Assembly (NCBI RefSeq): GCF_000025945.1
Contig: NC_006138.1
Span: 2,040,001-2,072,000 of the forward strand
Length of the DNA stretch: 32,000 nucleotides
DNA from: Desulfotalea psychrophila LSv54
GTDB taxonomy: Bacteria > Desulfobacterota > Desulfobulbia > Desulfobulbales > Desulfocapsaceae
Direction: 5' to 3'
Part shown: piece by piece, positions 12,299-31,243 of the stretch
Numbering within the stretch: the first letter of the stretch is position 1
Layout of the letters: every line of letters starts with the position of its first letter
The notes under the pieces: model-generated
Told to the model about the DNA's origin: nothing
Seen by the model: only the letters and a program-made list of their open reading frames with translations
Database searches by the model: none
Made by a program: the position numbers and the translations under genes

Positions 12299-12425
12299 CC
12301 ATCGCATTATTCTCGGTTGAACTCATCCTGATTTACAAATATGGCGGATAGAAGTATATTGGGCGACATTTATGATAATTACCCATACCTTCAATAGCTA
12401 AAAATAATAAAAGACATCATTGCCC

Positions 12426-13715
12426 ATGAGGATATTACTCGTTAATCCGCCTAATAGTGGTCGTTCTATCCCCGAAGAACGCTATGGCATCACCTCCCTC
12501 AAGCAGATATTTCGTGGTGAACCGCTGGGCCTTGAGGTACTGGCGGCCAGTTTGAGTAAGCATGAGGTACGCATTTTGGATCTGAAGGTTGTCCCCCAAC
12601 TGTTGGAGGAGACCCTTGAGCTATTTGCTCCGGATATAGTTGCCTTTACCGCCATGACCTGTGAGGCTCAGGCGGTTTTGCAATTGGCCTCTCAGGTAAG
12701 GGCCTGTGACGAGCGTATTCTGATCACCGTTGGTGGTGTTCATGCCTCATCTGATCCGGAATTTTTCAACAGGGAGATGATCGACTGGATTATTATTGGC
12801 CTCGGTGTTCAGTCCTTTCCCCTCTTGGCTGAGGCCTTGGAGAGAGGTCTCTTGGTAGAGATTGATGGAGTCGCCCGCAGCCAAGCGGGTAAAAAACTTG
12901 TCTACAGGCCTCGCTCTTTTAGTCAAGATGATCTCTTGACAATATCACCCCGATATGACCTTGTTCATGAGTATCGTCCCAGCTATATCCTGGAGACTCT
13001 GGGGCTTCAGCTTGGCTTTGTTTCCACTGCTGCCGGATGTCCCTTTGACTGCTCTTTTTGTTGTATTGGGCCCCTGACCGGTGGCAGGTATTTCACTGCC
13101 AAAATTGAAAATGTTATCCGTGATATTCAGAGAGTGCCCACCCCGGTTATTCGCCTGGTGGATGCCAATACCTTTGGCAAACCCAAGCATGCGGAAGAGC
13201 TGGCCCGGGCAATTGGCCACTATGGTATTAAAAAGCAGTTTATTGCCGATGTTCGCTCCGATACCGTTGTTCTTCACCCACAGTTGATGAGGCAGTGGCG
13301 GGAAATCGGCCTGCGAGCGGTGATTATCGGCTTTGAAGAGATTGACGATTCCGCCCTGGGGGCTATGAACAAGAAGAACAGCGCCGCAACCAATAAACAT
13401 GCCATTGAGATACTGCATGATCTGGGTATTACCATTGTCGGCGACTTTATCATTTCACCGGATTATCGGGAGGAGCAGTTTGAGCGTCTCGATGCCTTTG
13501 TTCAGGCCCAGGCCATAGAGCTGCCCATGTATACGGTGCTTACTCCGCTGCCGGGGACTGCTCTTCATAGAGAGGTCCGGGATCAGATAATCCTGGATGA
13601 TCTTGACTATTACACCCTGACGAATGCTGTTCTCCCCACCTATCTTGATGAGCAGCTCTTCTATCAACGTTATGCAGATCTCTTGGCCAAGGGACACCGC
13701 TCTGCAAAGGTTTAA
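12426..13715 (+). CDS. B12-binding-domain radical SAM protein
   Basis: MRILLVNPP.. B12-binding-like N-terminal domain and a CxxxCxxC motif (AAGCPFDCSFCC). The ORF track starts at TTG 12420; ATG 12426 is more likely. Confidence 0.78.
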   Translation: MRILLVNPPNSGRSIPEERYGITSLKQIFRGEPLGLEVLAASLSKHEVRILDLKVVPQLLEETLELFAPDIVAFTAMTCEAQAVLQLASQVRACDERILITVGGVHASSDPEFFNREMIDWIIIGLGVQSFPLLAEALERGLLVEIDGVARSQAGKKLVYRPRSFSQDDLLTISPRYDLVHEYRPSYILETLGLQLGFVSTAAGCPFDCSFCCIGPLTGGRYFTAKIENVIRDIQRVPTPVIRLVDANTFGKPKHAEELARAIGHYGIKKQFIADVRSDTVVLHPQLMRQWREIGLRAVIIGFEEIDDSALGAMNKKNSAATNKHAIEILHDLGITIVGDFIISPDYREEQFERLDAFVQAQAIELPMYTVLTPLPGTALHREVRDQIILDDLDYYTLTNAVLPTYLDEQLFYQRYADLLAKGHRSAKV

Positions 13716-13718
13716 ATA

Positions 13719-14867
13719 ATGTCTGTTTATATTACTGATATCGCATCTTTTCTGCCAAATGCCCCGGTGGATAACGAGCAAATGGAAGAGATCCTGGGTA
13801 TGGTTAATCAGTTGCCCTCCAGAACAAGGCGCATCATCCTCCGTAATAACCGGATCAAGACCCGCTATTATGCTATTGATCCTGTGACGGGTGAAACGAC
13901 TCATAGCAATACCCAGTTGACGGCCGAGGCGGTGAGGAGGTTGCGTCCAGCGGCCAACTTTCAACTCGATGAGATTGAATGTCTCTGCTGCGGTACTTCA
14001 TCACCCGATCAGCTCATGCCCGGTCATGCCCCCATGGTCCATGGCGAACTGGGCAATGCGGCCTGCGAGGTAATGACTGCCGCCGGTATTTGCACCTCCG
14101 GGATGACGGCCATGCGCTATGCCTGGCTTAATGTTCTGGCGGGACAGAGTAGTAATGCGGTGGCCACCGGCTCTGAGCTGGCCTCGACCTTTATGCGTTC
14201 GCGTCTTTGTAACTCGGTGGTTAGTGAGGAGAAGATTGAGCAGATGGAAAAACAGCCCGTGCTCTCCTTTGAGGCAGATTTTCTGCGCTGGATGCTCTCC
14301 GATGGGGCTGGAGCCGCCTATCTGACCAATGCGCCCAGGGCGGAGGGACTCTCTCTGAAGATTGAGTGGATTGATCTGCTCTCCTTTGCCCATGAGCTCC
14401 CGACCTGTATGTATGCCGGAGCCAGTAAGGGGAAGAGTGGTGCGCTGGTCGGTTGGCGAGAGCACGCTCCCGTCGATGCCTTGAGTCAGGGGGCCATGCT
14501 TATTAAGCAGGATGTGAAGCTGCTCAACGAGGAGATCATTACCACCGCCGTTGAACGGACCCTCCCGAGGTTAATAGAGAAGTATGATCTGCAGGCCGAG
14601 GAAATTGACTGGTTTCTTCCCCACTACTCTTCGGATTATTTTCGCTTGGCCTTTTATGAGCGAATGGAAAAAATTGGCTTTGCCATCCCTTTGGATCGTT
14701 GGTTTACCAATCTCACCAGCAAGGGTAACACCGGATCGGCCTCTATCTATATCATTCTCGCCGAGCTCTTTCATTCGGGCAGGATCAAGCGGGGCGAAAA
14801 GATCCTCTGTTTTATCCCTGAGAGTGGTCGCTTTTCCATGTGTTATATGCTTCTCACGGCTTGTTAG
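13719..14867 (+). CDS. KAS III (FabH)-like thiolase-fold condensing enzyme
   Basis: Cys in AAGICTSGMTAM, His in FLPHYSS and Asn in KGNTGSASIYI form a FabH-like C-H-N triad arrangement. Starts 3 nt after the radical SAM stop. Confidence 0.78.
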   Translation: MSVYITDIASFLPNAPVDNEQMEEILGMVNQLPSRTRRIILRNNRIKTRYYAIDPVTGETTHSNTQLTAEAVRRLRPAANFQLDEIECLCCGTSSPDQLMPGHAPMVHGELGNAACEVMTAAGICTSGMTAMRYAWLNVLAGQSSNAVATGSELASTFMRSRLCNSVVSEEKIEQMEKQPVLSFEADFLRWMLSDGAGAAYLTNAPRAEGLSLKIEWIDLLSFAHELPTCMYAGASKGKSGALVGWREHAPVDALSQGAMLIKQDVKLLNEEIITTAVERTLPRLIEKYDLQAEEIDWFLPHYSSDYFRLAFYERMEKIGFAIPLDRWFTNLTSKGNTGSASIYIILAELFHSGRIKRGEKILCFIPESGRFSMCYMLLTAC

Positions 14868-15181: not shown

Positions 15182-16270
15182 ATGGGGCAAACATCTGCTG
15201 CACCAAGTCTTGTTGCTGTTGCAGCGAAAAAACAGCTTGATTCCAGTTTTAGACGAAGAGGGATTACCATAGCATTGGCTTCAGGCCTATTTTATGGATT
15301 TTACACTGCTTTTATGACACTTGGTATGTCTAAAGGTATTTGGCTTGAGTGGTATGGTTCGCAGTCAAATTTATCAGCCTTTGCCGTTATGTATCTCCTC
15401 AGTGCCCTGGGCGCCGCCACCACGGATACCTGCAGTGCTCTCTGGGCTGTCTCTTTTGCAGTACTCAGAGGACGTTTTGGTGATTTTACCCGCTGCATAA
15501 GGACAAAACCGGGTATGGTAATGGTTGCGGCTGCTATCATAGGTGGGCCACTGGCCAGTACAGCCTATGTTATAGGACTTCAGCTAGCAGGATCCATTGT
15601 CGTGCCCATAGCTGCCCTCTGCCCTGCCTTTGGCGCAATAATTGGTCACTTTCTTTTTAAGCAAAAATTAACAGCGCGTATTATGCTGGGAATAGCAATT
15701 TGCTTTGCCGCCAGTTTCCTTATTGGTAGTACAGGGCTTGGTGCTAATGTTCCGGATAATCTCTTTCTTGGTCTCTTCTTCGGTTTGGCTGCCGCAGTTT
15801 TCTGGGGTATAGAGGGATGTATCTGTGGCTATGGAACCTCAATGATTGATCCTGAAATAGGAATTACCATTCGCCAGGTAACCGCTGGTTTTTCAAATCT
15901 ATTTATTCTCGTGCCCCTCTTTGGCATAATTGCTCAGGTAGATAGCTTTGCCATGGTGACCCAATCTTTTACCGATGGTGGTTCGATTATCTATTTTGCC
16001 ATTGCCGGATTGTGTGCCTACCTGACATTTATGTACTGGTATAAAGGTAATGGCATGTGTGGTGCTGCCCTTGGCATGTCCTGTAACGGAACCTTCTCTT
16101 TCTGGGGTCCTTTTTGTTGCTGGATTGTTTTGGGTATTGTTTTTGGCATTGAGGGCTGGTCCATGCCTCCGATAGCTTGGGCTGCGGCCATTCTTATGGT
16201 TATTGGTATTTTTATTATAGCAATGAACCCCTTAGATCTGTTTAAAAAAAGTAATCAGGAGACAGCATGA
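15182..16270 (+). CDS. 10-TM permease, drug/metabolite transporter (DMT/EamA-GRP-like) superfamily; candidate substrate importer for the cut locus
   Basis: 362 aa, about 10 hydrophobic segments in two halves. GGPLASTAYVIGLQLAGSIVVPIAALCPAFGAIIGHFLFKQKL is an EamA-like repeat. RBS GAGGAGAG. Confidence 0.65.
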   Translation: MGQTSAAPSLVAVAAKKQLDSSFRRRGITIALASGLFYGFYTAFMTLGMSKGIWLEWYGSQSNLSAFAVMYLLSALGAATTDTCSALWAVSFAVLRGRFGDFTRCIRTKPGMVMVAAAIIGGPLASTAYVIGLQLAGSIVVPIAALCPAFGAIIGHFLFKQKLTARIMLGIAICFAASFLIGSTGLGANVPDNLFLGLFFGLAAAVFWGIEGCICGYGTSMIDPEIGITIRQVTAGFSNLFILVPLFGIIAQVDSFAMVTQSFTDGGSIIYFAIAGLCAYLTFMYWYKGNGMCGAALGMSCNGTFSFWGPFCCWIVLGIVFGIEGWSMPPIAWAAAILMVIGIFIIAMNPLDLFKKSNQETA

Positions 16271-16533
16271 TTCCATTAAATTACGCCATCTTGAAATTTT
16301 TTACCAAAAATGATGATGCATCAGCTGATTGTGTTATGAGTGCCTTGCAGGACCAGTACGGTCACTATAAGGCCTTCAAAAAAGGCTCAATCATCAATGC
16401 CATAATGACAGCCGAGGCCAATGGTCTTCTTGAAGAGGCTAGATTAGAGCTTGATCCTAGTCAAGAGCTGAAGGTTTATTACAGGGCCCATGAAGAGGGC
16501 GCTGCAACAATAAACAAGTATATCAAGGGTTAG
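16267..16533 (+). CDS. 88-aa soluble protein of unknown function, possibly a small winged-helix fold
   Basis: ATGA overlap with the permease stop implies translational coupling. ..NAIMTAEANGLLEEARLELDPSQELKVYYRAHEEGAATINKYI resembles the wing region of PadR-like proteins, but weakly. Confidence 0.45.
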   Translation: MIPLNYAILKFFTKNDDASADCVMSALQDQYGHYKAFKKGSIINAIMTAEANGLLEEARLELDPSQELKVYYRAHEEGAATINKYIKG

Positions 16534-16996: not shown

Positions 16997-17848
16997 ATGA
17001 GTCACAAAAAGAAATATTTCATAGGAGATATGAGTAAGATATGTAATTTGTCAAAAAAGGCTCTTCGATTTTATGACAAAATAGGCATAATTCCATCTCA
17101 TAGGCATGACTGTAATAATTACAGGTACTATACCAGTGAATCACTGTTGGCCGTTCCGGTAATAAAGTACTATAAGCAGATGGGGTTTACTCTGGAAGAG
17201 ATGAAGGAGTTTATCGAAGGCAAAGACCCTAACGTTTTTAAGAGTATAAAAAAATCCTTTTTGAATAAAATTAAATCATTTGAAGAGGAGCAGGAGAAGA
17301 TTGAGCGGAAACATATTGCCGTTAAAGACTGGTATGAACTCATTTTGGAAGCTGAGACGGTTATTGAGAACAGTATATCCGATGTTTCCGTTAAGTACAT
17401 CGATAGCGCAGAGCTATTATGTCAGGAGCAATACTATGAAAAAGATATAAAGGCCTCCATTGTCAATATTGACTTTACAAATTATGTCGAAGAGCTGGAT
17501 AACGAGATAACCGGGCCGGTAATAATCTATTTTTCACCCCTGCAAGATAGAATTGAAAATCGGCCACAGGCAATTAAGATTCTGCAAAAAACAATAAAAA
17601 CCTGTAGTAAGAAGAACAGGGAAACATTCGGTGGCTGCATGATGGCTTCCTGTTACCATATAGGTTCGCATGATACGATCCAACAGACATATCAAAAAAT
17701 ATGTAAATGGGCCGGGCAAAATGGTTATGTTCTGGGCAAAGGCTCCTATGAACGGTATGTTACAGATTACTGGACCACGCGGAACACCTCTAAGTTTATC
17801 ACTGAGATATTAATCAAGGCGACCAGAATGAGAGAGGCTATTCAGTAA
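16997..17848 (+). CDS. MerR-family transcriptional regulator with a C-terminal GyrI-like effector-binding domain (BmrR-like architecture)
   Basis: N-terminal YFIGDMSKICNLSKKALRFYDKIGIIPSHR..NYRYYT is a MerR HTH, followed by a coiled-coil linker. C-terminal ..ASCYHIGSHDTIQQTYQKICKWAGQNGYVLGKGSYERYVTDYW is GyrI-like. Confidence 0.85.
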   Translation: MSHKKKYFIGDMSKICNLSKKALRFYDKIGIIPSHRHDCNNYRYYTSESLLAVPVIKYYKQMGFTLEEMKEFIEGKDPNVFKSIKKSFLNKIKSFEEEQEKIERKHIAVKDWYELILEAETVIENSISDVSVKYIDSAELLCQEQYYEKDIKASIVNIDFTNYVEELDNEITGPVIIYFSPLQDRIENRPQAIKILQKTIKTCSKKNRETFGGCMMASCYHIGSHDTIQQTYQKICKWAGQNGYVLGKGSYERYVTDYWTTRNTSKFITEILIKATRMREAIQ

Positions 17849-18267: not shown

Positions 18268-18879
18268 ATGGGGTATCACGTTGACGGGGCTTTAGGCTTA
18301 ATTGAAACTCTTGGAATGGTTCCTGCCATTAGTGGCGCGGACGCTATGCTGAAAACAGCTGATGTCACCTTGGTTTCCTATGAAAATATTGGCTCTACTC
18401 TGGTGGCTGTGATGGTCAAGGGAGATACTGCGGCAGTTCAGGCTTCGGTGGATGCGGGGGCCAAGGCTGCGGCCAAAGTAGGCCAGGTTACAGCGCAAAA
18501 TGTTATGCCCCGCCCTGTTCGGGAGGTGGATGCTATTGCTGCCGTTCACGGTATAGACAGATCTGAGGCGGTCAGCGGGTCGCGACCAAAATCCATGGGC
18601 TTTGTTGAGACCTTTGGCATTGTTTTTGCCCTGGAAGCAATCGATGCCATGGTTAAGGCTGCCAATGTAGAGGTTATCGGCTATGAGAACGTCGCCTCGG
18701 GATATATATCCGTATTAGTTGAGGGTGATGTCGCTGCCTGCCAGGCCGGCGTTGCTGCAGGCGTTCAGGCTGTTGAACGGATGGGTGGAGAGGTACATAG
18801 CTCTCTTGTTATCCCCACCCCTCACCCTGATATAGAGCTGATAACCAGGACCTATGCCTTGGATAAACTTTTACCCTAG
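18268..18879 (+). CDS. BMC shell protein, fusion of two canonical PduA/J-like BMC domains (tandem)
   Basis: Two repeats of the BMC-H signature: ALGLIETLGMVPAISGADAMLKTADVTLVSYENIG..VAVMVKGDTAAVQASV and MGFVETFGIVFALEAIDAMVKAANVEVIGYENV..ISVLVEGDVAACQAGV. Confidence 0.85.
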   Translation: MGYHVDGALGLIETLGMVPAISGADAMLKTADVTLVSYENIGSTLVAVMVKGDTAAVQASVDAGAKAAAKVGQVTAQNVMPRPVREVDAIAAVHGIDRSEAVSGSRPKSMGFVETFGIVFALEAIDAMVKAANVEVIGYENVASGYISVLVEGDVAACQAGVAAGVQAVERMGGEVHSSLVIPTPHPDIELITRTYALDKLLP

Positions 18880-18951
18880 CCCTCCGTTACTGACAGATGA
18901 TATTGGCAGAAACCTCAACCTGCATGCAGGGTGTAGATAAAGGCAAATATA

Positions 18952-20454
18952 ATGATTGTTGACAACGATTTACTCTCCGTTCAAGAGGCCAGAATTCTGG
19001 TTGAGGATGCTTTTGAAGCCCAAAAGAAATTGGCAACATTCTCCCAGGAAAAGCTGGATGAGATTGTTGAAGGTATGACCCGGGCTGTTGAAGGTCAGCT
19101 TCGGGATCTTGCCCAGATGTCTCAAGAAGAAACCGAAATTGGCAAATGGCAGGACAAGCATATCAAGAACAGCTTTGTCTGTAGCTATAGCCGTAGCCAT
19201 CTGCGCTATATGCACTGTGTTGGTGTTATTGGTGAAGACCCGATGAACGCCATCACCGAGATAGGGGTCCCCATTGGGGTTATTGTATCCACCTGCCCTG
19301 AGACAAGCCCTGTCTCTACAGCTATATATAATACACTTATTGCCATTAAGTCCGGCAATGCCATCATCTTCTCTCCCCATCCCAGAGCCCGACAGAGTAT
19401 TGGCAAAACCCTGGATATTATGAGAGAGGCGGCTCAGGCCCATGGGCTTCCCGAGGGCTGTCTGGCTTATTTGCAGACCGTAGATCATAGTGGTCTTCTG
19501 GAGTTGATGAACCATGACTGCACCTCACTTCTTCTTATTGGTGGAGATGAAATCTTACTGCAGACCGCAGCTGGCACAGGTAAAACCATCATCTATGGTG
19601 GTACCGGAAACGGACCGGCCTTTATAGAACGCTCGGCCGATATTGAACAGGCGGCACGAGATATCATTGCCAGCAAATCCTTTGATAATGGTATTGCCCC
19701 GGCGGCAGAACAGTCTCTGGTGGTGGATGCTCCGGTGGCAGAAGATGTACGTCGGGCAATGAAGAGAAATGGGGCATATTTTATGTCCGAGCAGGAGGCT
19801 AGTCAGCTCGTTCAGATATTTTTTACCTCCGCCGGCAAGCATAAAAAGGGAGTTGTTGGTATCTCGGCTCAGAGGCTTGCCCAACGGGCCGGTTTTATCG
19901 TGCCTGCAGACGTGACCCTCCTCGTGGCTGAGCGTAAATATGTCTCCGAAGCCGATCCCTACTATCGTGCCTTTCTTGCCCCCGTTCTTGCCATGTATGT
20001 GGAAGAGGACTGGATGGATGCCTGTGAAAAATGTATAGAACTTCTTCTCTATGAGAAAAAGGCCCACTCTCTGGTTATTCACTCTTGCAATAAAGAGATT
20101 ATTCATCAGTTCGCCCTGAAAAAACCGGTGGCCAGACTCTTGGTGAACACCCCGGGAGCCTTTGGTGGCATGGGTGCAACGACCAACCTCTTTCCCTCTA
20201 TGATGCTGGGAAGCTCCTCCGCTGGACACGGTGTTACCTCTGACAATGTCTCACCCTTAAATCTTATCTATAGGAGAAAGGTGGGCTATCAGGTCAGAAG
20301 TATGGAGGAAGTAAAAAAAACAATAATGGTCGAGGAACCCCTTCGCCATGTGAGCAGTACCCCGATAGAAAGTAATGATTCAGTGACGGTGGAGGTAATA
20401 CATCAAATCCTGAAGAAGGCGATTAAGACCATAAATGACCCCGCCGCTCATTGA
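18952..20454 (+). CDS. AdhE-type (CoA-acylating) aldehyde dehydrogenase homologue, apparently lacking the catalytic Cys and Asn; C-terminal amphipathic helix
   Basis: Aligns along its length with the AdhE N-terminal domain (NAIIFSPHPRAR, GGTGNGPAFIERSADI). The active-site block reads SKSFDNGIAPAAEQS where AdhE has SKTFDNGVICASEQS. TNPTST is replaced by TSPVST. Confidence 0.8.
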   Translation: MIVDNDLLSVQEARILVEDAFEAQKKLATFSQEKLDEIVEGMTRAVEGQLRDLAQMSQEETEIGKWQDKHIKNSFVCSYSRSHLRYMHCVGVIGEDPMNAITEIGVPIGVIVSTCPETSPVSTAIYNTLIAIKSGNAIIFSPHPRARQSIGKTLDIMREAAQAHGLPEGCLAYLQTVDHSGLLELMNHDCTSLLLIGGDEILLQTAAGTGKTIIYGGTGNGPAFIERSADIEQAARDIIASKSFDNGIAPAAEQSLVVDAPVAEDVRRAMKRNGAYFMSEQEASQLVQIFFTSAGKHKKGVVGISAQRLAQRAGFIVPADVTLLVAERKYVSEADPYYRAFLAPVLAMYVEEDWMDACEKCIELLLYEKKAHSLVIHSCNKEIIHQFALKKPVARLLVNTPGAFGGMGATTNLFPSMMLGSSSAGHGVTSDNVSPLNLIYRRKVGYQVRSMEEVKKTIMVEEPLRHVSSTPIESNDSVTVEVIHQILKKAIKTINDPAAH

Positions 20455-20478
20455 TATCCCTTAGATGGAGGAAGCAAA

Positions 20479-23019
20479 TTGGATCTTCAAAGTTTTTCTG
20501 AAAAACTCATAGTAGCAACCAAAAACCTTAATGCTGCGGAGCGCGCCTCCCTGAAAAAGATCTTCGATGGTGATTCCACCGAGATTGCAGAGGACAAGAA
20601 TGTGCCATCGGCTCATCTCTCTGTAGACCCATGTGCTATACCCAATGGGCCTACTGATCGACATATAAAGCTTAAGAAAAAATTCCTTACTCACGTGCCC
20701 ACCATCACCACCCATCGGGCTCGGGCCATCACCAAGATTGCTCAGGAAAACCCAGGATTGCCCAAGGCTATTCTGCGCGGTAAATCCTTTAAGTACTGTT
20801 GTGAAACGGCACCCCTGGTAATCCAGGATAATGAGCTCATCGTTGGTTCTCCCTGCGGTGCTCCCCGGGCCGGTGCCTTCTCGCCAGATATCGCTTGGCG
20901 CTGGGTTAAGGATGAACTTGATACCATCGGCACTCGTCCTCAGGATCCCTTCTTTATCTCCGAAGAGGATAAAAAGATCATGCGCGAAGAGCTCTTCCCC
21001 TTCTGGGAAGGCCGATCCATTGATGAGTATTGTGAGCAGCAGTACCGCGAAGCGGGTATGTGGGAACTCTCCGGTGAATCCTATGTTACCGATTGCTCTT
21101 ATCACGCCACAAATGGCGGTGGTGATTCTAATCCTGGCTACGATGTAATCCTGATGAAAAAGGGTATGCTTGATATCGTCAGGGAGTCTCAGGAGAAGTT
21201 GGCCGAACTGGATTATGAAAATCCCGATGATATGGATAAGATCTATTTTTATAAGTCTCTTATCGATACCGCAGAAGGGGTAATGATCTACGCCAAGCGT
21301 CTCTCTGACTATGCGGCCCAATTGGCAGCCAGTGAGAAAGATCCCCAGCGTAAGGCAGAACTTGAGAAGATCTCAGCTGTAAACGCCCGGGTTCCTGCTC
21401 ATAAGCCCGAGACCTATTGGGAGGCTATTCAGGCAGTCTGGACCGTTGAATCTCTTCTTATCGTTGAAGAGAATCAGACAGGCATGTCCATTGGTCGTGT
21501 TGATCAGTATATGTACCCATTTTATAAGGCAGATATTGAAGCAGGACGCATGACCGAGTATGAGGCCTTTGATCTCTCCGGTTGTCTGCTGGTGAAATGT
21601 TCCGAGATGATGTGGATCACCAGTGAGGATGCCTCCAAGTTCTTCGCTGGCTATCAACCCTTCGTCAATATGTGCCTGGGCGGGGTGACCCGCGAGGGTC
21701 TTGATGCCACCAATGATCTTACCTACCTCCTTATGGATGCCGTTCGTCATGTTAAGGTTTATCAACCCTCTGTGTCCACCCGTGTTCATAACCAATCTCC
21801 TCAGAAGTATCTGAAGAAGATTGTGGATGTGATTCGTGCCGGCATGGGCTTTCCCGCCATCCACTTCGACGATGCCCATATTAAGATAATGCTGGCCAAG
21901 GGCTGCTCCATTGAAGATTCCCGTGATTATTGCCTCATGGGTTGCGTAGAGCCTCAGAAGTCTGGTCGTCTCTATCAGTGGACTTCCACCGCCTACACCC
22001 AGTGGCCCATCTGTATTGAGATGGCTCTCAACCACGGAGTGCCTCTCTGGTACGGCAAGCAGGTCTGTCCTGATCTTGGCGCCCTGGAGTCCTTTGATAC
22101 CTATGAGAAATTTGACGCGGCCGTTAAGGAGCAGATCAAGTATGTGACCAAGTGGACCAGTGTCGGTACCGTTATTTCCCAACGCATTCACCGGGATCTG
22201 GCTCCTAAACCTCTTATGTCTATGATGTACGAGGGTTGTATGGAGTCCGGTAAAGATGTCTCGGCAGGCGGTGCTATGTATAACTTTGGCCCCGGTGTTG
22301 TCTGGAGTGGCCTTGCCACCCATGCCGACTCCATGGCAGCTATTAAAAAACTGGTCTTTGATGACAAGAAGTACAGCTTGACCCAGCTTAATGAAGCCCT
22401 AAAGGCCGAGTTTAAGGGCTATGACCAGCTGAAGGCCGATTGTCTTGCCGCTCCTAAGTTTGGTAACGATGACGATTACGCTGATCTTATCGTTAATGAT
22501 CTGGTGAACTTCACCGAGCGGGAGCATCGTAAGTTTAAGACCCTCTATTCGGTTTTGAGCCATGGTACCCTCTCCATCTCTAATAATACGCCATTTGGTC
22601 AACTCCTTGGTGCTTCAGCCAATGGTCGTGATGCCTGGATGCCCCTCTCCGATGGTATCAGCCCTACCCAGGGTGCTGACTTTAAGGGGCCCACCGCCAT
22701 CATTAAGTCCGTATCGAAAATGCCCACCGATAGCATGAACATCGGTATGGTGCATAACTTCAAGCTGATGTCCGGTCTTTTGGATACACCCGAAGGTGAG
22801 AACGGTATCATCACCCTGATCCGTACTGCCAGTATGATGGGTAACGGTGAGATGCAGTTTAACTATCTCGATAATGACACCCTGCTTGATGCTCAGTTAC
22901 ATCCTGAAAAGTATCGTGATCTGGTGGTTCGGGTTGCCGGTTACAGTGCCTTTTTTGTTGAGCTGTGCAAGGATGTACAGGATGAAATTATCAGCAGAAC
23001 CATGTTGACTGAAATTTAG
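20479..23019 (+). CDS. cutC: Choline trimethylamine-lyase (glycyl radical enzyme), TTG start
   Basis: 846 aa. RVAGYSAFF puts the radical Gly at residue 821; GCVEP gives C489/E491. By my own residue count, Y208, D216, F395, T502 and Y506 fall at the numbering I recall for the Desulfovibrio alaskensis CutC choline pocket. RBS GGAGGAAG. Confidence 0.93.
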
Positions 23020-23067
23020 GCTTTTATCCCCTCTTAGGGCAGATATTTAAGACGAAGAGAGTGTATC

Positions 23068-24000
23068 GTGGCAGAAAGAAAAGCACATATATTTAATATC
23101 CAAAAGTATAATATGTACGATGGCCCCGGGGTGAGAACCCTGGTCTTTTTCAAAGGGTGCCCTCTTCGTTGCCTGTGGTGCTCGAATCCCGAAGGACAAC
23201 TGCGCCAGCCTCAGGTTTTGCTGAAGCAGGATCGCTGTATTGACTGCGGTGACTGTGTCCCGGTTTGTCCCGTTGGCATTCATCGTCTCCTGCCTGGTAG
23301 TAAAAAGCATGAGATAAATCAGAAGATAGAGTGCATAGGCTGTGGGAAGTGTGAGGCGGCTTGCAAGCAGGGGGCCCTTGCCATCACCGGTGGTTTGCAG
23401 ACTATCTCTCAGTTGCTTGAGGTGATTGAAGAGGATAGGCCCTTCTACGAGATGTCTGGTGGAGGGGTTACCCTTGGCGGAGGTGAGGTGTTGATGCAAC
23501 CGAAGGCTGCGGCAAGTCTTTTGATGAGCTGTAAGCAGAGGGGAATTAATACCGCCATTGAAACCTGTGGCTATGCCCGTCCCGAGGTGATCAAGAGTGT
23601 TGCGGAGTTTACAGATCTCTTTCTTTTTGATATCAAACATATGAACTCGGAAAGACACCGCGAACTGACCGGGGTGCGTAATGAGCTTATTCTCAGCAAT
23701 GTCCAGTGGCTTCTGGAAAACCGATTTAACGTCCGGATCAGGGTACCGGTTCTGAGAGGAGTTAATGACGGTGAGACGGAACTGGCTCAGCTGATAGATT
23801 TTCTCCGGCCATATCTTGGCTTGAAGAATTTCAAGGGAGTTGATATTCTCCCCTATCATAAAATGGGTGTTAATAAATACAGGCAGTTGGGCTGGGACTA
23901 TCCCATCGAGGGTCCCGTTGAACTAAATACTGCTGATCTGGAACGTATTGAGAGCTATTTTAAACTAAATAATTTTCCGGTATCGGTGATTCAGCACTGA
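23068..24000 (+). CDS. cutD: Glycyl-radical enzyme activating enzyme (radical SAM), GTG start
   Basis: GPGVRTLVFFKGCPLRCLWCSNPE (CX3CX2C), plus two ferredoxin-like motifs CIDCGDCVPVCP and CIGCGKCEAAC. Lies immediately downstream of cutC. Confidence 0.9.
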   Translation: MAERKAHIFNIQKYNMYDGPGVRTLVFFKGCPLRCLWCSNPEGQLRQPQVLLKQDRCIDCGDCVPVCPVGIHRLLPGSKKHEINQKIECIGCGKCEAACKQGALAITGGLQTISQLLEVIEEDRPFYEMSGGGVTLGGGEVLMQPKAAASLLMSCKQRGINTAIETCGYARPEVIKSVAEFTDLFLFDIKHMNSERHRELTGVRNELILSNVQWLLENRFNVRIRVPVLRGVNDGETELAQLIDFLRPYLGLKNFKGVDILPYHKMGVNKYRQLGWDYPIEGPVELNTADLERIESYFKLNNFPVSVIQH

Positions 24001-24039
24001 TGTCAGGGCTGACCTTATCTGTTGCAAAATAGGGGAAAT

Positions 24040-24609
24040 ATGAAGAAGAATCAGGAAATTGATACATTAGGTGTTGTTGAGTCAGCAACCATTGCTGCCG
24101 GGGTGGCCCTGACGGACACCATGTTAAAGGTTGCCGATGTTGAGTTGCTTCAGGCCACGACCATCTGCTCCGGTAGATATATGATCTATATTTCCGGCGA
24201 TTGTGCTGCGGTTACTGCTGCGGTTCAGGCAGCAGAAGGGTCGGGGCGTAAAATACTCGGTAGCTATGTCCTCTCAAACGTTTCCCCTGAACTGGTCAGC
24301 TTTTTGCGTAAGGGGACCGTCGTTAAAGAGGTTGAATCCCTAGCCGTTGTTGAATGCCGCAATGTCTCTTCTGGCATTGCCGCCGCCGATAAGGCCCTGA
24401 AGAGTTCCGCAGTCTGTTTGGCTCGACTGGTTACAGGTCAGGGGATTAACGGTAAATCGTATTTTGTTATCAGCGGAGATGTTGCCTCCGTTGGAGAAGC
24501 GGCAAAGGTCGCAGAGTCCGTTTTGGGCAAAAATCTTATCGAGGTAGTTATTATCCCCCAACCCCACGCCTCGGTGGTAAGGTCTCTGGTAAAAGGGGTG
24601 AGGTTATAG
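24040..24609 (+). CDS. PduT-like tandem BMC shell protein
   Basis: Aligns with PduT as I recall it (LGVVE.., TTICSGRYMIYISGD retaining the pore Cys, second domain LAVVECRNVSSGIAAADKALKSS.., VIIPQPH). ATG 24040 with RBS AGGGG is preferred over the TTG 24022 in the ORF track. Confidence 0.85.
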   Translation: MKKNQEIDTLGVVESATIAAGVALTDTMLKVADVELLQATTICSGRYMIYISGDCAAVTAAVQAAEGSGRKILGSYVLSNVSPELVSFLRKGTVVKEVESLAVVECRNVSSGIAAADKALKSSAVCLARLVTGQGINGKSYFVISGDVASVGEAAKVAESVLGKNLIEVVIIPQPHASVVRSLVKGVRL

Positions 24610-24969
24610 ATGAAGAAAAAACTTGTTGAAGCGAGCAATGTAGAGTCCTATCTGTGCGAAAATGGCACTAAGATTTATATTGATAAGAGCATGGTCTTAA
24701 CTCCGGGCGCCCGAGATGTATTGAATGGCAGAAGAGTTGAATTTATCTATGGAGAGCGGCCGGGCTCTGAAGGCTCTCTTGCGACGATCCTGAAGGGCTG
24801 TGCCTCAGCAAATGCCTTTTCGGCAGTTGCCGGCAATGAAAATGGCGATTATGAAAAGTTTGTCCTGGGTATAGGGGCAATGCTTAAAGACTCTTATGGG
24901 ATTGTCGATCCTGCTGAGCGGAAGAGATACACCAAGAGGGCCATCCAGATAATCAAAGAGAATATCTAG
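24610..24969 (+). CDS. 119-aa protein of unknown function embedded in the BMC operon
   Basis: ATG directly follows the PduT-like TAG, with RBS GGTGAGG. The N-terminal ..KSMVLTPGARDVLNGRRVEF resembles a short motif I recall from several BMC-associated proteins. No confident family call, and it is not EutN-like. Confidence 0.45.
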   Translation: MKKKLVEASNVESYLCENGTKIYIDKSMVLTPGARDVLNGRRVEFIYGERPGSEGSLATILKGCASANAFSAVAGNENGDYEKFVLGIGAMLKDSYGIVDPAERKRYTKRAIQIIKENI

Positions 24970-25031
24970 GCCTCTTTTGTCGTTGATGCAAAAAGAGACA
25001 ATTGCCCATTTAAAAGTGAAAACAGCCAGCC

Positions 25032-25391
25032 ATGTCTGAAATATCAAGAGAGCCAAAACAGCGAATTATTCAAGAGTATGTCCCGGGAAAGCAGATCAGC
25101 CTTGCCCATCTCATTGCCAGCCCCGATAAGAGCATCTATCTTAAACTGGGCTTGGATGAGGAGGCCAGCGGGGCCCTTGGGGTACTGACCATAACCCCGA
25201 GCGAGGGGGTTATCGTTGCCTCGGATATTGCCACCAAGGCGGCCTCTGTTGAGATTGGCTTTCTTGATAGGTTTGGCGGTTCACTTCTCCTCCTCGGTGA
25301 TGTGGGTGGTGTCGATGCTGCCCTGCAGGCGGTTTTGGATTATTTTGGTAATACCCTGCACTATTCGGTGGTGGAGATGACCCGGACCTAA
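25032..25391 (+). CDS. PduU/EutS-type (circularly permuted) BMC shell protein
   Basis: [74 protein letters not shown] matches the PduU sequence I recall ([53 protein letters not shown]). Confidence 0.88.
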   Translation: [119 protein letters not shown]

Positions 25392-25476
25392 GAGTCTGTT
25401 ACAAAATAAGATGGCCCGAAGCTGAGATGCAAGATGTTCATGTTATTTTTGCCAGGCCCTAGGGGTTAGAATCACA

Positions 25477-25897
25477 ATGAAAAAAATGATGCTGATAGGC
25501 GAGACTCATGCCGGTAAGAGTTCTCTGATCAAGGCCCTCTCCGGGCAGGAGTTTCAGCCTCGCAGGGCCATGGCCCTGCAGTACTTTGGCCCCTTTATCA
25601 ACACTCCGGGAGAGTTTATAGAAAACCACTTTTTCTTTCCCGCCCTGATAACCACCTCGGCTGACTGTCATGTCCTGGCCATGGTTCAGGATGCAAGTAG
25701 CCGGAGCAGTCTCTTTCCACCCCTCTTGCCTCGATGTTCAACCGCAGGGGGTCGGGCTGATCACCAAGATTGACAGTCCCCATGCCAATGTCGAGCGAGC
25801 CAAACTCTTCTTAAAAAACGCCGGTATCAAAGAGACTCTCTGCTGTAGCAGTATAACGGGGGCCGGATTGGAAGAGATTCGTCAGCTGATCCAGTAG
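25477..25897 (+). pseudogene. EutP/PduV-family small GTPase, interrupted by two apparent 1-nt frameshifts at homopolymers
   Basis: P-loop MLIGETHAGKSSL and INTPGEF are in frame 1. LASMFNRR is in a second frame and VGLITKID..GAGLEEIRQLIQ* in the third. The switches coincide with C4 (25720-25723) and G5 (25747-25751). Adding one base to each gives a 140-aa EutP-like protein. Confidence 0.72.
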
Positions 25898-26388: not shown

Positions 26389-27510
26389 TTAACCTAGAGC
26401 TCGATAGTTGAGTTCATATTTCTTGGCATCATCTTCCTTAAGAAGATTCTTTTCTAACAGTTTTTTGATATCCCTTCTGGCTGTCTGTTCGCTCGCCTTT
26501 TGGTAGAGAATTTTAAAGGGATAGTTGTCCATCAGGTCTTTAAGGGTAAAGGCAATGGGATTATCCAGCAGTAAAGAGAGCAGGGCAAACTGTCTTTTGC
26601 TTATTGCCCTGTTTTTCTGTTCATGGGTGTAAAAATCTCTTAGGGCAAATCTTCTGATCAGAAAGGTTATTGACTCTTTTATATCCATGAGGCTTTCCAC
26701 TACCCCTTCAAGCATAAACTGGATAAAGGGGGTGACATCTTTTCTGTTTTTAATGCTTTTGGAAAATGCTGCATAGTAATCATCTACATTTCGATAGTAG
26801 TAGTTTGAGAGTTCTTTCGGAACGTATTTTATATTGGCAGAATGGAGAAGGCATGATTCAAGAAATCTGGCAGTTCTGCCATTGCCATCCCAAAAAGGAT
26901 GGATGAGGCAGAGATGATAATGGGCCAGTGCTGCCCTGAGAAAGGGGTTGAGACCTAAAATTTCTTCGCTGTTGAGCCAGGCCACGAACTCTTTCATGAG
27001 CATTTTTACATCTGCCAGTATTTTAGGTGGTCTGTATACGCCACCGTGCCCTTTGTCGCCGACAATAACCTCACCATTTCTATAGGCCCCTGGAATATTG
27101 TACTCATGTGGAATTTCCGTGGTAATGATCCTATGCATGGTTTTGATAAAATCTTCACTAACAATCAGGGGGCCATTTTGAGGCTCCATCTCCGAGAGTA
27201 TCTGGTATAGGGAGAGTAGGTTTTTGATCTCCTGCTTATCCTTTTGGGTGTAGAGAGGCATCTCTTCACCGGCCGCGATCTTTTTGACCCCCTCCTCTTC
27301 AATGGGATTTCCCTCAATCATGGCTGTTCCGGAAATAGAGCTATACATGATCTTTGGATCCAGCCTTGCCGACATTCCGGGAAGAATTGGCAGATCCGTG
27401 ACGGTCTCATAGAGCAGATTGGCCTTAAAGAGCAGGTTATCGACTATGACCATCTCTGTTTCGTGGCAAAAATAAAACTTCCCTGATTTATAGGTTAAAA
27501 TGTCTTTCAT
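26389..27510 (-). CDS. Fic-family protein (class II auto-inhibited type) with a C-terminal winged-helix-like domain
   Basis: HPFWDGNGRTAR Fic motif (26866-26901). N-terminal inhibitory-type motif TAMIEG, i.e. [S/T]xxxE[G/N], at 27310-27327. Start chosen at MKDILTYK (27510, RBS GAGAGGG). The longer ORF-track N-terminus runs through the repeat/promoter. Confidence 0.85.
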   Translation of the reverse strand: MKDILTYKSGKFYFCHETEMVIVDNLLFKANLLYETVTDLPILPGMSARLDPKIMYSSISGTAMIEGNPIEEEGVKKIAAGEEMPLYTQKDKQEIKNLLSLYQILSEMEPQNGPLIVSEDFIKTMHRIITTEIPHEYNIPGAYRNGEVIVGDKGHGGVYRPPKILADVKMLMKEFVAWLNSEEILGLNPFLRAALAHYHLCLIHPFWDGNGRTARFLESCLLHSANIKYVPKELSNYYYRNVDDYYAAFSKSIKNRKDVTPFIQFMLEGVVESLMDIKESITFLIRRFALRDFYTHEQKNRAISKRQFALLSLLLDNPIAFTLKDLMDNYPFKILYQKASEQTARRDIKKLLEKNLLKEDDAKKYELNYRALG

Positions 27511-27521
27511 TTTGCCCTCTC

Positions 27522-27618
27522 TTTTGTCATAGAAAATGTAACAACTTAAATCAATTATATTAATAGCTTGCAGTGTGCCGGCGTTTTTTTCTGATAAAGA
27601 AAATGTAACAACTTTCGT
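27522..27618. repeat. ~97-bp direct repeat, copy B (Fic promoter/operator region)
   Basis: Contains two identical 17-nt boxes AGAAAATGTAACAACTT (27531-27547 and 27598-27614). On the Fic strand a TTGATT-17-TATGAC promoter overlaps box 1. Confidence 0.9.
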
Positions 27619-27677
27619 CATGAAAGTAATCATCTTTTTTGTCCCCTCCTCGTAGCACTCGAATTTATCTTGGGAGC

Positions 27678-27694
27678 GCGGACGTCTCGTCCGC
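27678..27694. repeat. GC-rich perfect hairpin GCGGACG-tct-CGTCCGC
   Basis: 7-bp perfect stem in an intergenic segment upstream of Fic. Single copy in this window. Confidence 0.5.
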
Positions 27695-27855
27695 AAAGCT
27701 TGCCATCCTGTAATGCCCAATTTGATTAGCCTAATTATTTCATCAAAGATGTTTTGGGGCAAGATTGAGCCAAGGGGGATTTAGTGGAGATGGAGAGTCT
27801 GATCGTCTTTGTTGGAGATTCAGGGGTTTTAATTTGCCTCGGCTTTTTTAGAGAA

Positions 27856-28838: not shown

Positions 28839-29915
28839 ATGAAAAAAGTTAAGAACAAAATGCAATATAATCGGTTATCAAAAAGACGATTTGAAAAAAA
28901 AATAAAGAGAAAAAAACATAAAAAAGAGCTAATAAAATTAGCTATACAACAAAAAAAAAGCATTTTGAATGTAAAAAGAAATAAATTAAAATTACATAAA
29001 AAAGCAAATGCTGAAGACTTTATCGAACTAAAGCCACCATCGCATTTTAGTATTATTGAGAACCCAAATGAAACTTTAACTTTTTTTGAAAGTTTAGAAA
29101 GTAACCTTCTTAACTACGATCCAATTTATATTAACATGTCGGAAATAAGCAGAATGACTGTAGATGCATTGTTATATTATATTTCAATTTTACAGCATAT
29201 TAAAACAAAGCTTAGTGCCTATATTTTAAAAGGTTCATTTCCCGAAGATGAAGAAACTTTAACATTGATGAAGCGATCCGGCTTTTTAAGGTATTTTAAA
29301 ACATCTGAAGATAATATTAATACTCATAGAGATTATGTTGAAATAAAAAGTGGTAATATTGCAGATAATCAAGTTGTTAAAGATATATGTCTTTTTGTTA
29401 TGGAGAAAATGAAAGTCGGTAGGGTAAAAACACAAAAATTGTATGATATTATTTTTGAAATGATGTTAAACACAAAACAACATGCCTATAATGCTAATAC
29501 GAATAAATATGATAATTGGTTATTGTTTTTGAAGTTTAATCCGGATAAATCTAATATAGAGTTTATTTTTTTGGATAAGGGCTTTGGTATTCCTCAAACA
29601 GTAAGAAAAAATAAATTAGAAATAGCCGTAAAATGGTTTTCTAAAATAGGGATAACTGAATTTAGCGAGACTGATTTAGTTGATTCAGCATTAAAGGGAG
29701 CATTTAGAACTAAAACGGAAAAAGGATATAGAGGGAAAGGTTTACCTAAAATAAATCAATATTTTGAAAATGGATATATAAAATCATTAAATATTATATC
29801 TAAAAAAGCTTGTATAACTGCAGAAAACAAACATGATTTGGAAAAAGAAATAATCGGTACACTATATTCCTGGAAAATCACAAAGGATAGTATAAATGGC
29901 AACAATAATTATTAG
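28839..29915 (+). CDS. GHKL-superfamily ATPase / RsbW-SpoIIAB-like serine-kinase-type protein with a Lys/Arg-rich N-terminal tail
   Basis: N-box FEMMLNTKQHAY, G1 box FLDKGFGIP and G2 box YRGKGLPKI. The first ~55 aa are extremely basic (KKVKNK..KRRFEKKIKRKKHKKE..KRNKLKLHKK). The middle segment (IYINMSEISRMTVDALLYYISIL) looks STAS-like. Confidence 0.68.
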   Translation: MKKVKNKMQYNRLSKRRFEKKIKRKKHKKELIKLAIQQKKSILNVKRNKLKLHKKANAEDFIELKPPSHFSIIENPNETLTFFESLESNLLNYDPIYINMSEISRMTVDALLYYISILQHIKTKLSAYILKGSFPEDEETLTLMKRSGFLRYFKTSEDNINTHRDYVEIKSGNIADNQVVKDICLFVMEKMKVGRVKTQKLYDIIFEMMLNTKQHAYNANTNKYDNWLLFLKFNPDKSNIEFIFLDKGFGIPQTVRKNKLEIAVKWFSKIGITEFSETDLVDSALKGAFRTKTEKGYRGKGLPKINQYFENGYIKSLNIISKKACITAENKHDLEKEIIGTLYSWKITKDSINGNNNY

Positions 29916-30213
29916 TGAAACATTTACAGATGCACCTGGTGGAAGGTTGCGTTCCGATGGCCCAAAGTCTGGAGAAGAATTCAGAAATGATTTTTTGATA
30001 CCGGTTTTTGACAAGCTAACTGAATCAGAACAGATAACTATTGATTTAGACGGTTGTTTTGGATACGCAACCAGTTTTTTAGAAGAAGTTTTTGGAGGGT
30101 TATCAAGAGAATACGGAGCAAAAAAAGTTTTGGAAAAATTAAAATTTAAATCTGATGAAGAACCTCTTTTAATAACAGAAATTCAGGAGTATATAAAAGA
30201 TGCTTCGAAATAA
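29896..30213 (+). CDS. STAS-like small protein (DUF4325-type)
   Basis: 105 aa. ..QITIDLDGCFGYATSFLEEVFGGL.. follows the STAS-like 'v.lDf.gv...tsSFldE.fg' pattern. Overlaps the ATPase gene by 20 nt. RBS AAGGA. Confidence 0.6.
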   Translation: MATIIISETFTDAPGGRLRSDGPKSGEEFRNDFLIPVFDKLTESEQITIDLDGCFGYATSFLEEVFGGLSREYGAKKVLEKLKFKSDEEPLLITEIQEYIKDASK

Positions 30214-30508
30214 AGTAGGGATTTTTCTTGTTTTTTTAATTTTAGTAATCACCATTGATTTGTTAACAATCAATTTTCTGAAATGGGACTTTCTAAGTGT
30301 TAATTTTTTTAATTGTCGATTAATTGAAATTTTAAGGCTACTTGTAATGATATTTTTAAGTTGTTACGTTGCTTATTGGGTTTCAATTAAAAGTAATGCA
30401 ATTCAAAAAAAGAAGGATCTTTGTTTGGTTTTGATAAATGAGGGTAACTTGATTCTATCAGAACAAAAAGAGTTAACACTTTTCGTTTACACAGCAAACA
30501 AGCAATAA
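30200..30508 (+). CDS. Small membrane protein with two predicted TM helices
   Basis: VGIFLVFLILVITIDLLTINFL and LIEILRLLVMIFLSCYVAYWVSI. Overlaps the STAS-like gene by 14 nt. RBS AGGAG. Confidence 0.55.
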   Translation: MLRNKVGIFLVFLILVITIDLLTINFLKWDFLSVNFFNCRLIEILRLLVMIFLSCYVAYWVSIKSNAIQKKKDLCLVLINEGNLILSEQKELTLFVYTANKQ

Positions 30509-30545
30509 AGATGATGGCAAGTTAGTTTTAAGTGGCTTTAGGCGA

Positions 30546-30761
30546 ATGAACAATAAATTAGATGCTATAAATATATTGTGCAGCAAAATTGATTCCAAGC
30601 TATCTGCTAGTACATTAATTACAAATTTTAAAATAATAAAAGAGCAGTTTGGGGATAGTTATATGGCAGGTTTTGCACTTGAAGATTCAAAAAAAATAGA
30701 AAAAAATTTTGATAAATTTGAAAAACTGTTTGATGACTTAAGGATTCAATTGTTAATTTAA
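30546..30761 (+). CDS. 71-aa helical protein of unknown function (may be the displaced C-terminus of the 2-TM protein)
   Basis: Same AT-rich composition as the cassette. Its frame is open upstream to 30477 and overlaps the end of the preceding ORF. Confidence 0.4.
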   Translation: MNNKLDAINILCSKIDSKLSASTLITNFKIIKEQFGDSYMAGFALEDSKKIEKNFDKFEKLFDDLRIQLLI

Positions 30762-30941: not shown

Positions 30942-30981
30942 CTAGCATCTAGCATCTAGCATCTAGCATCTAGCATCTAGC
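30942..30981. repeat. Heptanucleotide tandem repeat (CTAGCAT) x5 plus a partial copy
   Basis: Directly read: ctagcat ctagcat ctagcat ctagcat ctagcat ctagc. The last partial unit supplies the TAG stop of the minus-strand ACP gene. Confidence 0.95.
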
Positions 30982-31243
30982 CGATTTCCTGCGAAATAAA
31001 GTCGGCCAAACTAGCAATGGATTCGAGGACCCTACGGCTGGTGTCTTCGCCGCCGATGCGGATATCGTACTGCTTCTGGACCAGGAAGACTATCTCGACG
31101 GCGTCGAGGGAGTCGAGGCCGAGGGGTGAGTCCGGGCCGATGAGTTGGGCATCACTGGGGAAATCGTCGGGGGCATCCATCACCTTGCAGGCATCAATAA
31201 TTAGTAGCTTCAGATTCCTTTCTAACTCTGCTCTCTTCTCCAT
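30977..31243 (-). CDS. Acyl carrier protein-like (phosphopantetheine attachment site)
   Basis: 88 aa, acidic, with LGLDSLDAVEIVF (DSL Ser motif). Confidence 0.82.
   Translation of the reverse strand: MEKRAELERNLKLLIIDACKVMDAPDDFPSDAQLIGPDSPLGLDSLDAVEIVFLVQKQYDIRIGGEDTSRRVLESIASLADFISQEIG

Follow-up and report, generated by a model that had tools for sequence, protein, structure and literature searches.

Gene content of the cut locus

The finished chromosome of Desulfotalea psychrophila (3,523,383 bp) carries, within the 32-kb stretch analysed here (the window), an eight-gene operon for choline cleavage (cut) that encodes a glycyl radical enzyme together with shell proteins of a bacterial microcompartment (BMC). 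By descent, this is a locus of glycyl radical enzyme-associated microcompartment (GRM) type 1B, from which 11 of about 19 genes are missing. Genes of the window were assigned by profile searches (Pfam, NCBIfam, and PADLOC) of its listed open reading frames (ORFs), and for comparison 80 other cut loci, recovered by a CutC scan of species-representative genomes, were mapped with markers and annotated with Pfam. A preliminary description of the window had listed a tandem BMC protein, a PduT-like and a PduU/EutS-like shell protein, an aldehyde dehydrogenase (ALDH)-like protein, an unknown protein of 119 amino acids (u119), and EutP/PduV, whose coordinates and families were confirmed by the profiles (Table 1).

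The assignment of the 846-aa protein to CutC was equally upheld, as it scores well above the cut-off of TIGR04394 and has all eight expected residues at the numbering given for them (Y208, D216, F395, C489, E491, T502, Y506, and G821). Its identity to CutC of the closest loci, all from Desulfobacterota (L001–L013; Desulfopila, Desulfosediminicola, Desulforhopalus, Desulfotalea sp., Desulfoluna, Desulfobacterium, and Desulfovibrio), is 83–90%, and its N-terminus has a conserved, targeting-like amphipathic helix. The radical S-adenosylmethionine (SAM) activase CutD has a CX3CX2C motif at residue 31 and two additional ferredoxin-type cysteine motifs.

Two of the shell proteins are of the trimer-forming type (BMC-T) with two domains each. 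The tandem BMC-T protein, which is the first operon gene in the cut loci compared, has a CcmO-like match across residues 5–190 and belongs to the family named 'T_grm / Ts_dust' by Sutter 2021 (PMC8217296). The PduT-like BMC-T starts at TTG 24022 or ATG 24040, with versions of 189 and 195 aa both present in public records. As described previously, it retains the pore cysteine: Cys49 in the motif 'TTICSGRY' aligns with the cluster-ligand position Cys38 of the solved PduT chains, its best solved relatives. The gene that follows, u119, had no match in Pfam, NCBIfam, PADLOC, or a sequence search of the PDB. Homologues at 30–39% identity hold the same position in GRM1B loci, always after PduT; u119 is possibly the 'GRM1B specific protein' of Sutter 2021 (PMC8217296). 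Its structure, predicted from an alignment of two sequences, had a mean predicted local distance difference test (pLDDT) score of 40.

Seven of the eight operon genes are intact. The last one, eutP, was correctly recognised as broken; restoring it takes two frameshifts, at a run of four C and a run of five G, and the three-frame reconstruction passes from frame 1 ('FPP') to frame 3 ('PLASMFNRR') and on to frame 2 ('VGLITKID'), so that we regard it as a pseudogene. Upstream of the operon, the genes for the MerR-type regulator and the EamA-type transporter are intact. The regulator is of the type shown to activate the cut operon of Desulfovibrio alaskensis G20 (Dde_3291; PMC4045070), and a homologue of the transporter (63–80% identity) neighbours the operon in almost every one of the 80 loci. 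A scan for promoters and terminators gave counts at the level of shuffled sequence and was not used.

Table 1. Features of the cut region in the D. psychrophila window
Feature	Position	Strand	Basis
EamA/DMT-family membrane transporter, candidate choline importer	15182..16270	+	Weak PF00892 match
Conserved 88-aa protein, EamA partner	16267..16533	+	No Pfam family; co-occurs with EamA in related loci
MerR-type choline-dependent activator of the cut operon (Dde_3291 type)	16997..17848	+	NF053782, 503.6 bits (cut-off 450)
Tandem-domain shell protein, BMC-T single-stacking type, 203 aa	18268..18879	+	Two canonical, non-permuted PF00936 domains, 161.9 bits
Catalytically inactive EutE-like aldehyde dehydrogenase (CutB-like), 500 aa	18952..20454	+	TIGR02518 (EutE-type), 501.6 bits, below cut-off 620
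Choline trimethylamine-lyase CutC, 846 aa	20479..23019	+	TIGR04394, 1667.8 bits (cut-off 1050)
CutD, radical SAM activating enzyme of CutC	23068..24000	+	TIGR04395, 569.6 bits (cut-off 360)
Deletion junction 1, CutD/PduT	24001..24039	.	Synteny with L001–L013, L085, and L093
PduT-like BMC-T with pore Cys for a 4Fe-4S cluster	24022..24609	+	Two PF00936 domains
119-aa protein (u119), family-less	24610..24969	+	Follows PduT in GRM1B loci
Deletion junction 2, u119/EutS	24970..25031	.	Synteny with canonical GRM1B loci
EutS/PduU-type circularly permuted single-domain shell protein	25032..25391	+	NF012012, 114 bits; one PF00936 domain
EutP/PduV GTPase pseudogene	25477..25897	+	PF10662 split across two ORFs

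Two internal gene blocks are missing from a GRM1B operon

Pfam searches of the remaining ORFs and a six-frame tblastn search (E ≤ 1) of the entire window, queried with markers of the canonical and the second-locus type (EutN, PduL, Pta, iron-containing alcohol dehydrogenase [Fe-ADH], EutJ, PduS, canonical hexamer-forming shell protein [BMC-H], and the 224-aa protein of GRM1B loci), returned no EutN, canonical BMC-H, PduL, Pta, Fe-ADH, PduS, or EutJ. The reported absence of a pentamer-forming shell protein (BMC-P, EutN-type), an alcohol dehydrogenase, PduL/Pta, and PduS/EutJ is therefore upheld. The accompanying claim that no single-domain hexamer is present needs qualification: a canonical PduA/EutM-type hexamer is indeed missing, but EutS/PduU is itself a single-domain, permuted BMC-H. 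The tblastn search also found no relic fragments of the missing genes or of the 224-aa protein in the window.

Canonical cut operons of Desulfobacterota begin with the tandem BMC-T, the inactive ALDH, CutC, and CutD. A first block of seven genes follows (BMC-H with extension, active ALDH, BMC-H, PduL, EutJ, the 224-aa protein, and EutN), then PduT and u119, a second block of four genes (BMC-H, Fe-ADH, PduS, and a second BMC-T), and EutS and EutP at the 3' end. The retained genes are colinear with this scheme, both ends are preserved, and exactly the first and the second block are absent. The same canonical order is found on the metagenome loci L085 and L093, and the retained genes are also colinear with those of L073; the full gene set is present in almost every one of the 80 cut loci. 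Both junctions are tight: about 20–40 bp separate CutD from PduT, and 62 bp separate u119 from EutS.

The D. psychrophila locus was typed as GRM1 by Axen 2014 (PMC4207490). For GRM1B, Sutter 2021 (PMC8217296) notes additional BMC-T proteins and a type-specific protein without assignment; in the window we found CutC with an adjacent CutD, the gene order, and the type-specific proteins. The parts that mark a GRM1 main locus, namely BMC-H plus BMC-P and the core enzymes (active acylating ALDH, phosphotransacylase, and alcohol dehydrogenase), were not found there.

The preliminary description had suggested that the missing genes were lost when the adjacent island formed. We rejected truncation of the operon from its downstream side: both gaps are internal (CutD|PduT and u119|EutS), the canonical EutS-EutP end is present, and the junctions are shared with a relative (see below). 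Because the canonical last gene is there, neither the Fic gene nor the low-GC islet downstream has truncated the operon. Nor do the missing genes follow just outside the window in the same operon, which is bounded by genes on the opposite strand.

One of the compared loci, from a Desulfobacterium metagenome-assembled genome (MAG; L008), has a second CutC-like glycyl radical enzyme (20573–22537) with 57% identity to CutC about 7 kb downstream of CutD, and its remaining BMC genes are upstream of the transporter genes.

The only aldehyde dehydrogenase of the window is inactive

The protein initially called ALDH-like does belong to the aldehyde dehydrogenase family, but is not merely divergent. 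Its catalytic cysteine is replaced by P250 ('DNGIAPAAEQS', compared with 'DNGT[IV]CASEQ' in the active paralogue). Among 146 aligned sequences of related cut loci, all first-position ALDHs are without the catalytic cysteine and have S, P, or A instead, and all second ALDHs carry 'GT[IV]CASEQ'. We thus rejected the idea that the inactive enzyme is an oddity of Desulfotalea: it is found across the cut loci compared and has been published by Axen 2014 (PMC4207490), who proposed a scaffold or regulatory role in GRM1 loci, an account repeated by Sutter 2021 (PMC8217296). The active copy, its usual companion in nearly all other loci, is not present in the window, which is therefore devoid of any active aldehyde dehydrogenase.

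The inactive ALDH ends in 'VEVIHQILKKAIKTIN', which forms an amphipathic helix of the encapsulation-peptide kind with a conserved helix motif, and the protein is probably a scaffold that carries an encapsulation peptide. Retention of terminal helices on both CutC and the inactive ALDH is consistent with ongoing targeting or clustering of cargo.

A second metabolosome locus on the same chromosome

The missing parts had been suspected to lie in a satellite locus elsewhere in the genome. That they are encoded elsewhere is supported by our searches: EutM-type BMC-H proteins and an active ALDH are encoded on the same chromosome, and Axen 2014 (PMC4207490) counted two BMC-P proteins. The source is better described as a metabolosome locus of different ancestry than as a classical shell-only satellite.

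The two EutM-type BMC-H proteins (CAG37763.1 and CAG37774.1) have accession numbers that are 11 apart, and both fall in the 90%-identity cluster of the first BMC-H of a locus in Halodesulfovibrio. A search with the ALDH sequence listed for D. psychrophila LSv54 in the supplement of Axen 2014 recovered an ALDH (P0004) from the same chromosome that has the catalytic cysteine and, at its N-terminus, the encapsulation-peptide-like helix 'EQIESIVAEVISQI'. Table S2 of that study lists two loci for this strain, with seven BMC-H, four BMC-T, two BMC-P, and zero satellite or satellite-like loci, and its text places two outlier active ALDHs of D. psychrophila in 'a second GRM1 locus' (PMC4207490). The shell genes of the window (one BMC-H and two BMC-T) plus two copies of a unit of three BMC-H, one BMC-T, and one BMC-P add up to exactly these counts of seven, four, and two. 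The rule of Axen by which loci within 20 kb are merged likewise keeps the cut locus and the second locus separate.

The nearest readable homologues of the second-locus ALDH (76% identity) are in Halodesulfovibrio (L082–L084), in the order Fe-ADH ... EutQ, Pta, BMC-H, PduS, BMC-T, BMC, BMC-H, EutN, ALDH, and EutJ, with no glycyl radical enzyme or recognisable signature enzyme within 10 kb. These loci are flanked by a TRAP transporter and by a pair of sensor kinase and sigma-54 regulator (L082, 4840–12246; also L083 and L084). Each class of gene lost from the cut operon, apart from the 224-aa protein, has a counterpart in this type of locus, and the second BMC-T of canonical GRM1B operons matches the Halodesulfovibrio BMC-T better than it matches PduT of the window. 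The genes kept are those that are without evident counterpart: the tandem BMC-T, the inactive ALDH, the first PduT paralogue with u119, EutS, and formerly EutP. Taken together, the second locus appears to be a duplicated metabolosome locus of different ancestry, whose full content in D. psychrophila we infer from these comparisons.

The reduced operon is conserved in a relative

Among 5.8 billion proteins, u119 had a single non-self match, with 79% identity. The metagenome contig encoding it (L081, 801 bp) carries the end of PduT, u119, and EutS at 87% DNA identity to the window and thereby reproduces the second junction. A contig of the same metagenome series that was found via a member of the PduT cluster (L106, 1,646 bp) carries CutD, PduT, and u119, is colinear with window positions 23103–24752 at 89.6% nucleotide identity, and reproduces the first junction. 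Both deletions therefore predate the split between D. psychrophila and this relative. An EutS-anchored scan of metagenome contigs, with 71% identity for the closest match, yielded only further canonical loci.

Synonymous divergence (dS) and the ratio of nonsynonymous to synonymous divergence (dN/dS) between the window and the contigs of the relative were calculated as Nei-Gojobori estimates. We obtained dS of 0.52 and dN/dS of 0.062 for CutD, 0.33 and 0.064 for PduT, and 0.39 and 0.038 for EutS, of which 117 of the 119 residues are identical. For u119, dS is 0.37–0.39 and dN/dS 0.14–0.32. The low dN/dS indicates that the retained shell genes are maintained, and speaks against simple decay.

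An exact copy of one D. psychrophila BMC-H sequence is encoded by four short contigs from the metagenome series of L081 and L106. On three of them (L107–L109) the order is Pta, BMC-H, and PduS, and two belong to the samples that gave L106 and L081.

Putative function of the reduced cut operon

The explanation that we favour, with moderate confidence, is that the reduced GRM1B cut operon acts as a module for the signature enzyme, with the second, duplicated metabolosome locus supplying the rest in trans. Two clean internal deletions removed every component class for which the second locus on the same chromosome would provide a counterpart, namely canonical BMC-H, BMC-P, active acylating ALDH, phosphotransacylase, alcohol dehydrogenase, PduS with its BMC-T partner, and EutJ. 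The module keeps the MerR choline sensor, the transporter pair, CutC and CutD, the inactive ALDH, the tandem BMC-T, PduT with u119, and EutS. Upon induction by choline, CutC and the CutB-like ALDH would be packaged in, or work beside, shells made mostly of trans-encoded hexamers and pentamers, and the ALDH, Pta, and alcohol dehydrogenase encoded in trans would process the acetaldehyde. Co-expression of the two gene sets and their physical mixing in one compartment are steps that we infer. In D. alaskensis G20, 16 genes of the cut cluster are required for growth on choline, including those for aldehyde and alcohol dehydrogenases and shell proteins (PMC4045070). Since G20 needs these genes and Desulfotalea nevertheless keeps the rest under selection, their loss must be compensated. 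The puzzle of the absent pentamer and pathway is thus largely answered by the second locus in the same genome.

Several observations weigh against this explanation. The gene list of the second locus draws on the count by Axen 2014, on two protein clusters, and on related loci of other organisms. This locus may have a signature enzyme of its own; in Halodesulfovibrio, the 10 kb around its counterpart contain no glycyl radical enzyme. The ALDH of the second locus is of a different, EUT1-like lineage (Axen 2014, PMC4207490), Pta replaces PduL in this type of locus, and the compatibility of cargo and shell is assumed. Halodesulfovibrio aestuarii holds the same type of locus plus a complete cut locus (L028), so that co-residence alone does not drive reduction. 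The occurrence of both kinds of contigs in the same metagenome samples is no proof that they derive from one organism, and a literature search found no physiology on choline use by D. psychrophila.

A different reading, which we consider rather unlikely, is that the locus is a self-sufficient minimal assembly. The tandem BMC-T, PduT, and EutS would form, with the inactive ALDH as scaffold, a shell, sheet, or open scaffold around CutC that is free of pentamers and canonical hexamers, from which acetaldehyde leaves to cytosolic enzymes. The strong purifying selection on PduT and EutS in the reduced context and the targeting-type helices kept on CutC and the CutB-like ALDH would fit such an assembly. 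Still smaller cut loci exist in Neisseria sp., Snodgrassella alvi, and a gammaproteobacterium, and reduced ones in Peptococcaceae and Hathewaya. A cytosolic aldehyde:ferredoxin oxidoreductase adds to choline fitness in G20 (PMC4045070), and isethionate lyases that release acetaldehyde function without BMC genes in Desulfovibrio (PMC8667426). However, canonical hexamers, pentamers, and an ALDH with encapsulation peptide exist elsewhere in the genome, and a shell of trimers and permuted proteins only, which the preliminary description had considered, is less likely because the missing parts are encoded there. Moreover, the lost genes mirror what the second type of locus offers, which is unexpected for a self-sufficient module. 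We know of no closed shell that consists only of BMC-T and permuted BMC-H proteins.

That the operon is instead a decaying remnant, with the microcompartment function lost, CutC/CutD free in the cytosol or inactive, and vestigial shell genes, is improbable. The loss of 11 genes, the two frameshifts in eutP, and the Fic gene and low-GC islet directly downstream would be in line with decay. Yet the other seven of the eight retained genes as well as the regulator and the transporter are intact, the junctions are tight (about 20–60 bp) and devoid of relic fragments, and dN/dS of CutD, PduT, and EutS is 0.04–0.06 over dS of 0.33–0.52 in a lineage that already has both deletions. An artefact of assembly or annotation, by which some of the cluster genes went missing, is practically negligible as an explanation. 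It is suggested by the unusual gene content and nothing further, but the chromosome is finished and both junctions are reproduced colinearly by two independent metagenome contigs, which therefore exclude an artefact of assembly.

Small cut loci in other lineages

Cut loci of four genes (tandem BMC-T, inactive ALDH, CutC, and CutD) are present in Neisseria sp. Ec49-e6-T10 (L014, 7777–13511), Snodgrassella alvi (L071, 7839–13543), and the gammaproteobacterium AwWohl (L034, 1157–7093). All three have the EamA transporter adjacent, two also its 88-aa partner, and their flanks of about 5–10 kb contain no other BMC gene. In their CutC proteins the N-terminal helix motif is duplicated. These proteins are each other's closest relatives (about 83%), and reduction in this group was therefore separate from that in Desulfotalea. 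They share the four-gene core with D. psychrophila and, like it, have no pentamer, canonical hexamer, or pathway enzymes nearby; in contrast to it, they are without PduT, u119, EutS, and EutP.

A tentative generalisation, to which we give little weight, is that this quartet is an autonomous unit that operates without canonical hexamers, pentamers, and an encapsulated aldehyde pathway, and to which Desulfotalea adds PduT, u119, and EutS. The unit could hold an oxygen-sensitive radical enzyme on a scaffold that is open or lacks pentamers. That it survived independently in Desulfotalea, Neisseriaceae, and a gammaproteobacterium, and as related reduced forms in two lineages of Firmicutes, would then reflect function and not leftovers.

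Further reduced loci were seen in a Peptococcaceae MAG (L056, 9341–13493), with only the tandem BMC-T, CutC, and CutD and no inactive ALDH, and in Hathewaya massiliensis (L045, 8053–14812), with BMC-H, inactive ALDH, CutC, CutD, EutS, EutP, and BMC-H; within 10 kb of the latter locus there is neither EutN nor an active ALDH nor PduL.

Relation to known microcompartment loci

The D. psychrophila locus resembles the GRM1B cut loci of Desulfovibrionaceae and other Desulfobacterota, such as the Dde_3282 region of D. alaskensis G20, in the regulator, the transporter pair, the first four genes, PduT-u119, and the terminal EutS-EutP, which are colinear, and has a CutC 78–90% identical to theirs. It differs from them by the 11 absent internal genes, most of which are needed for growth of G20 on choline (PMC4045070).

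In having a signature enzyme and few shell proteins apart from the locus for the bulk shell, it is similar to satellite-like or 'consolidated' loci, and its closest published analogue are the 'EUT modules' (EutABC plus EutL), by which HO and SPU compartments are extended (Axen 2014; Sutter 2021). As in the satellite-like loci defined by Axen 2014, its shell genes contain PF00936 only (three genes) and no PF03319, and another BMC locus exists in the genome. Unlike EUT modules, it is what is left of a main locus that was once complete, has its own regulator and transporter, and has a presumed host locus of different lineage. A strict satellite consists of shell genes only, whereas the cut locus holds the signature enzyme, its activase, the inactive ALDH, and EutP, and is thus at most 'satellite-like'; the table of Axen gives zero such loci for D. 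psychrophila.

The presumed partner locus is like the IslAB (GRMguf) cluster of Bilophila wadsworthia (PMC8667426) and L082–L084 in having an ALDH with N-terminal encapsulation peptide, EutN, Pta, EutQ, BMC-H, a PduT-like BMC-T, PduS, and a nearby amidohydrolase, a set that as a whole is putative for D. psychrophila. The Halodesulfovibrio loci differ from the Bilophila cluster by the lack of a nearby glycyl radical enzyme.

Our literature search found no account of the reduced state of the D. psychrophila cut locus, in a genome that became public two decades ago and whose locus type and inactive ALDH have been published. If complementation in trans is true, a complete microcompartment locus has shed exactly the parts that a second locus made redundant, and the remainder is a plug-in module of 'signature enzyme plus dedicated tiles'. 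Mixing of cargo and shell proteins across metabolosome lineages would then be testable in a cultivated organism, as would the role of the conserved inactive aldehyde dehydrogenase, and the kept proteins (tandem BMC-T, PduT with its partner, and EutS) would be the candidates for substrate-specific shell components. Locus-based prediction of the capacity to form trimethylamine from choline, or of the type of microcompartment, can mislabel reduced loci. The four-gene loci of Neisseriaceae suggest that CutC can persist with very little shell context, which bears on how strictly acetaldehyde has to be sequestered.

Neighbouring genes in the window

Downstream of the operon, a Fic-domain protein (26389–27762, minus strand; PADLOC SoFic match, 162.6 bits) suggests a defence or toxin gene. 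It is followed by a low-GC islet (28839–30761, plus strand; 28–31% GC compared with about 48% nearby) that encodes a family-less 358-aa protein, a DUF4325 STAS-like protein, and two small ORFs. The islet had no PADLOC matches and was probably acquired horizontally. A B12-binding radical SAM enzyme and a KAS III-like protein are encoded upstream of the cut region (12420–14867, plus strand), and an acyl carrier protein and an ABC-2 permease downstream (30977–31967, minus strand); the cut region and the islet may therefore lie inside or beside a lipid or polyketide-type cluster.

Programmed +1 frameshifting of prfB is well known. The release factor 2 ORF of the window (2086–3115, minus strand) matches the PCRF profile only from position 57 and has a CTTTGAC motif upstream on the same strand (3109–3115), a pattern consistent with such a frameshift.

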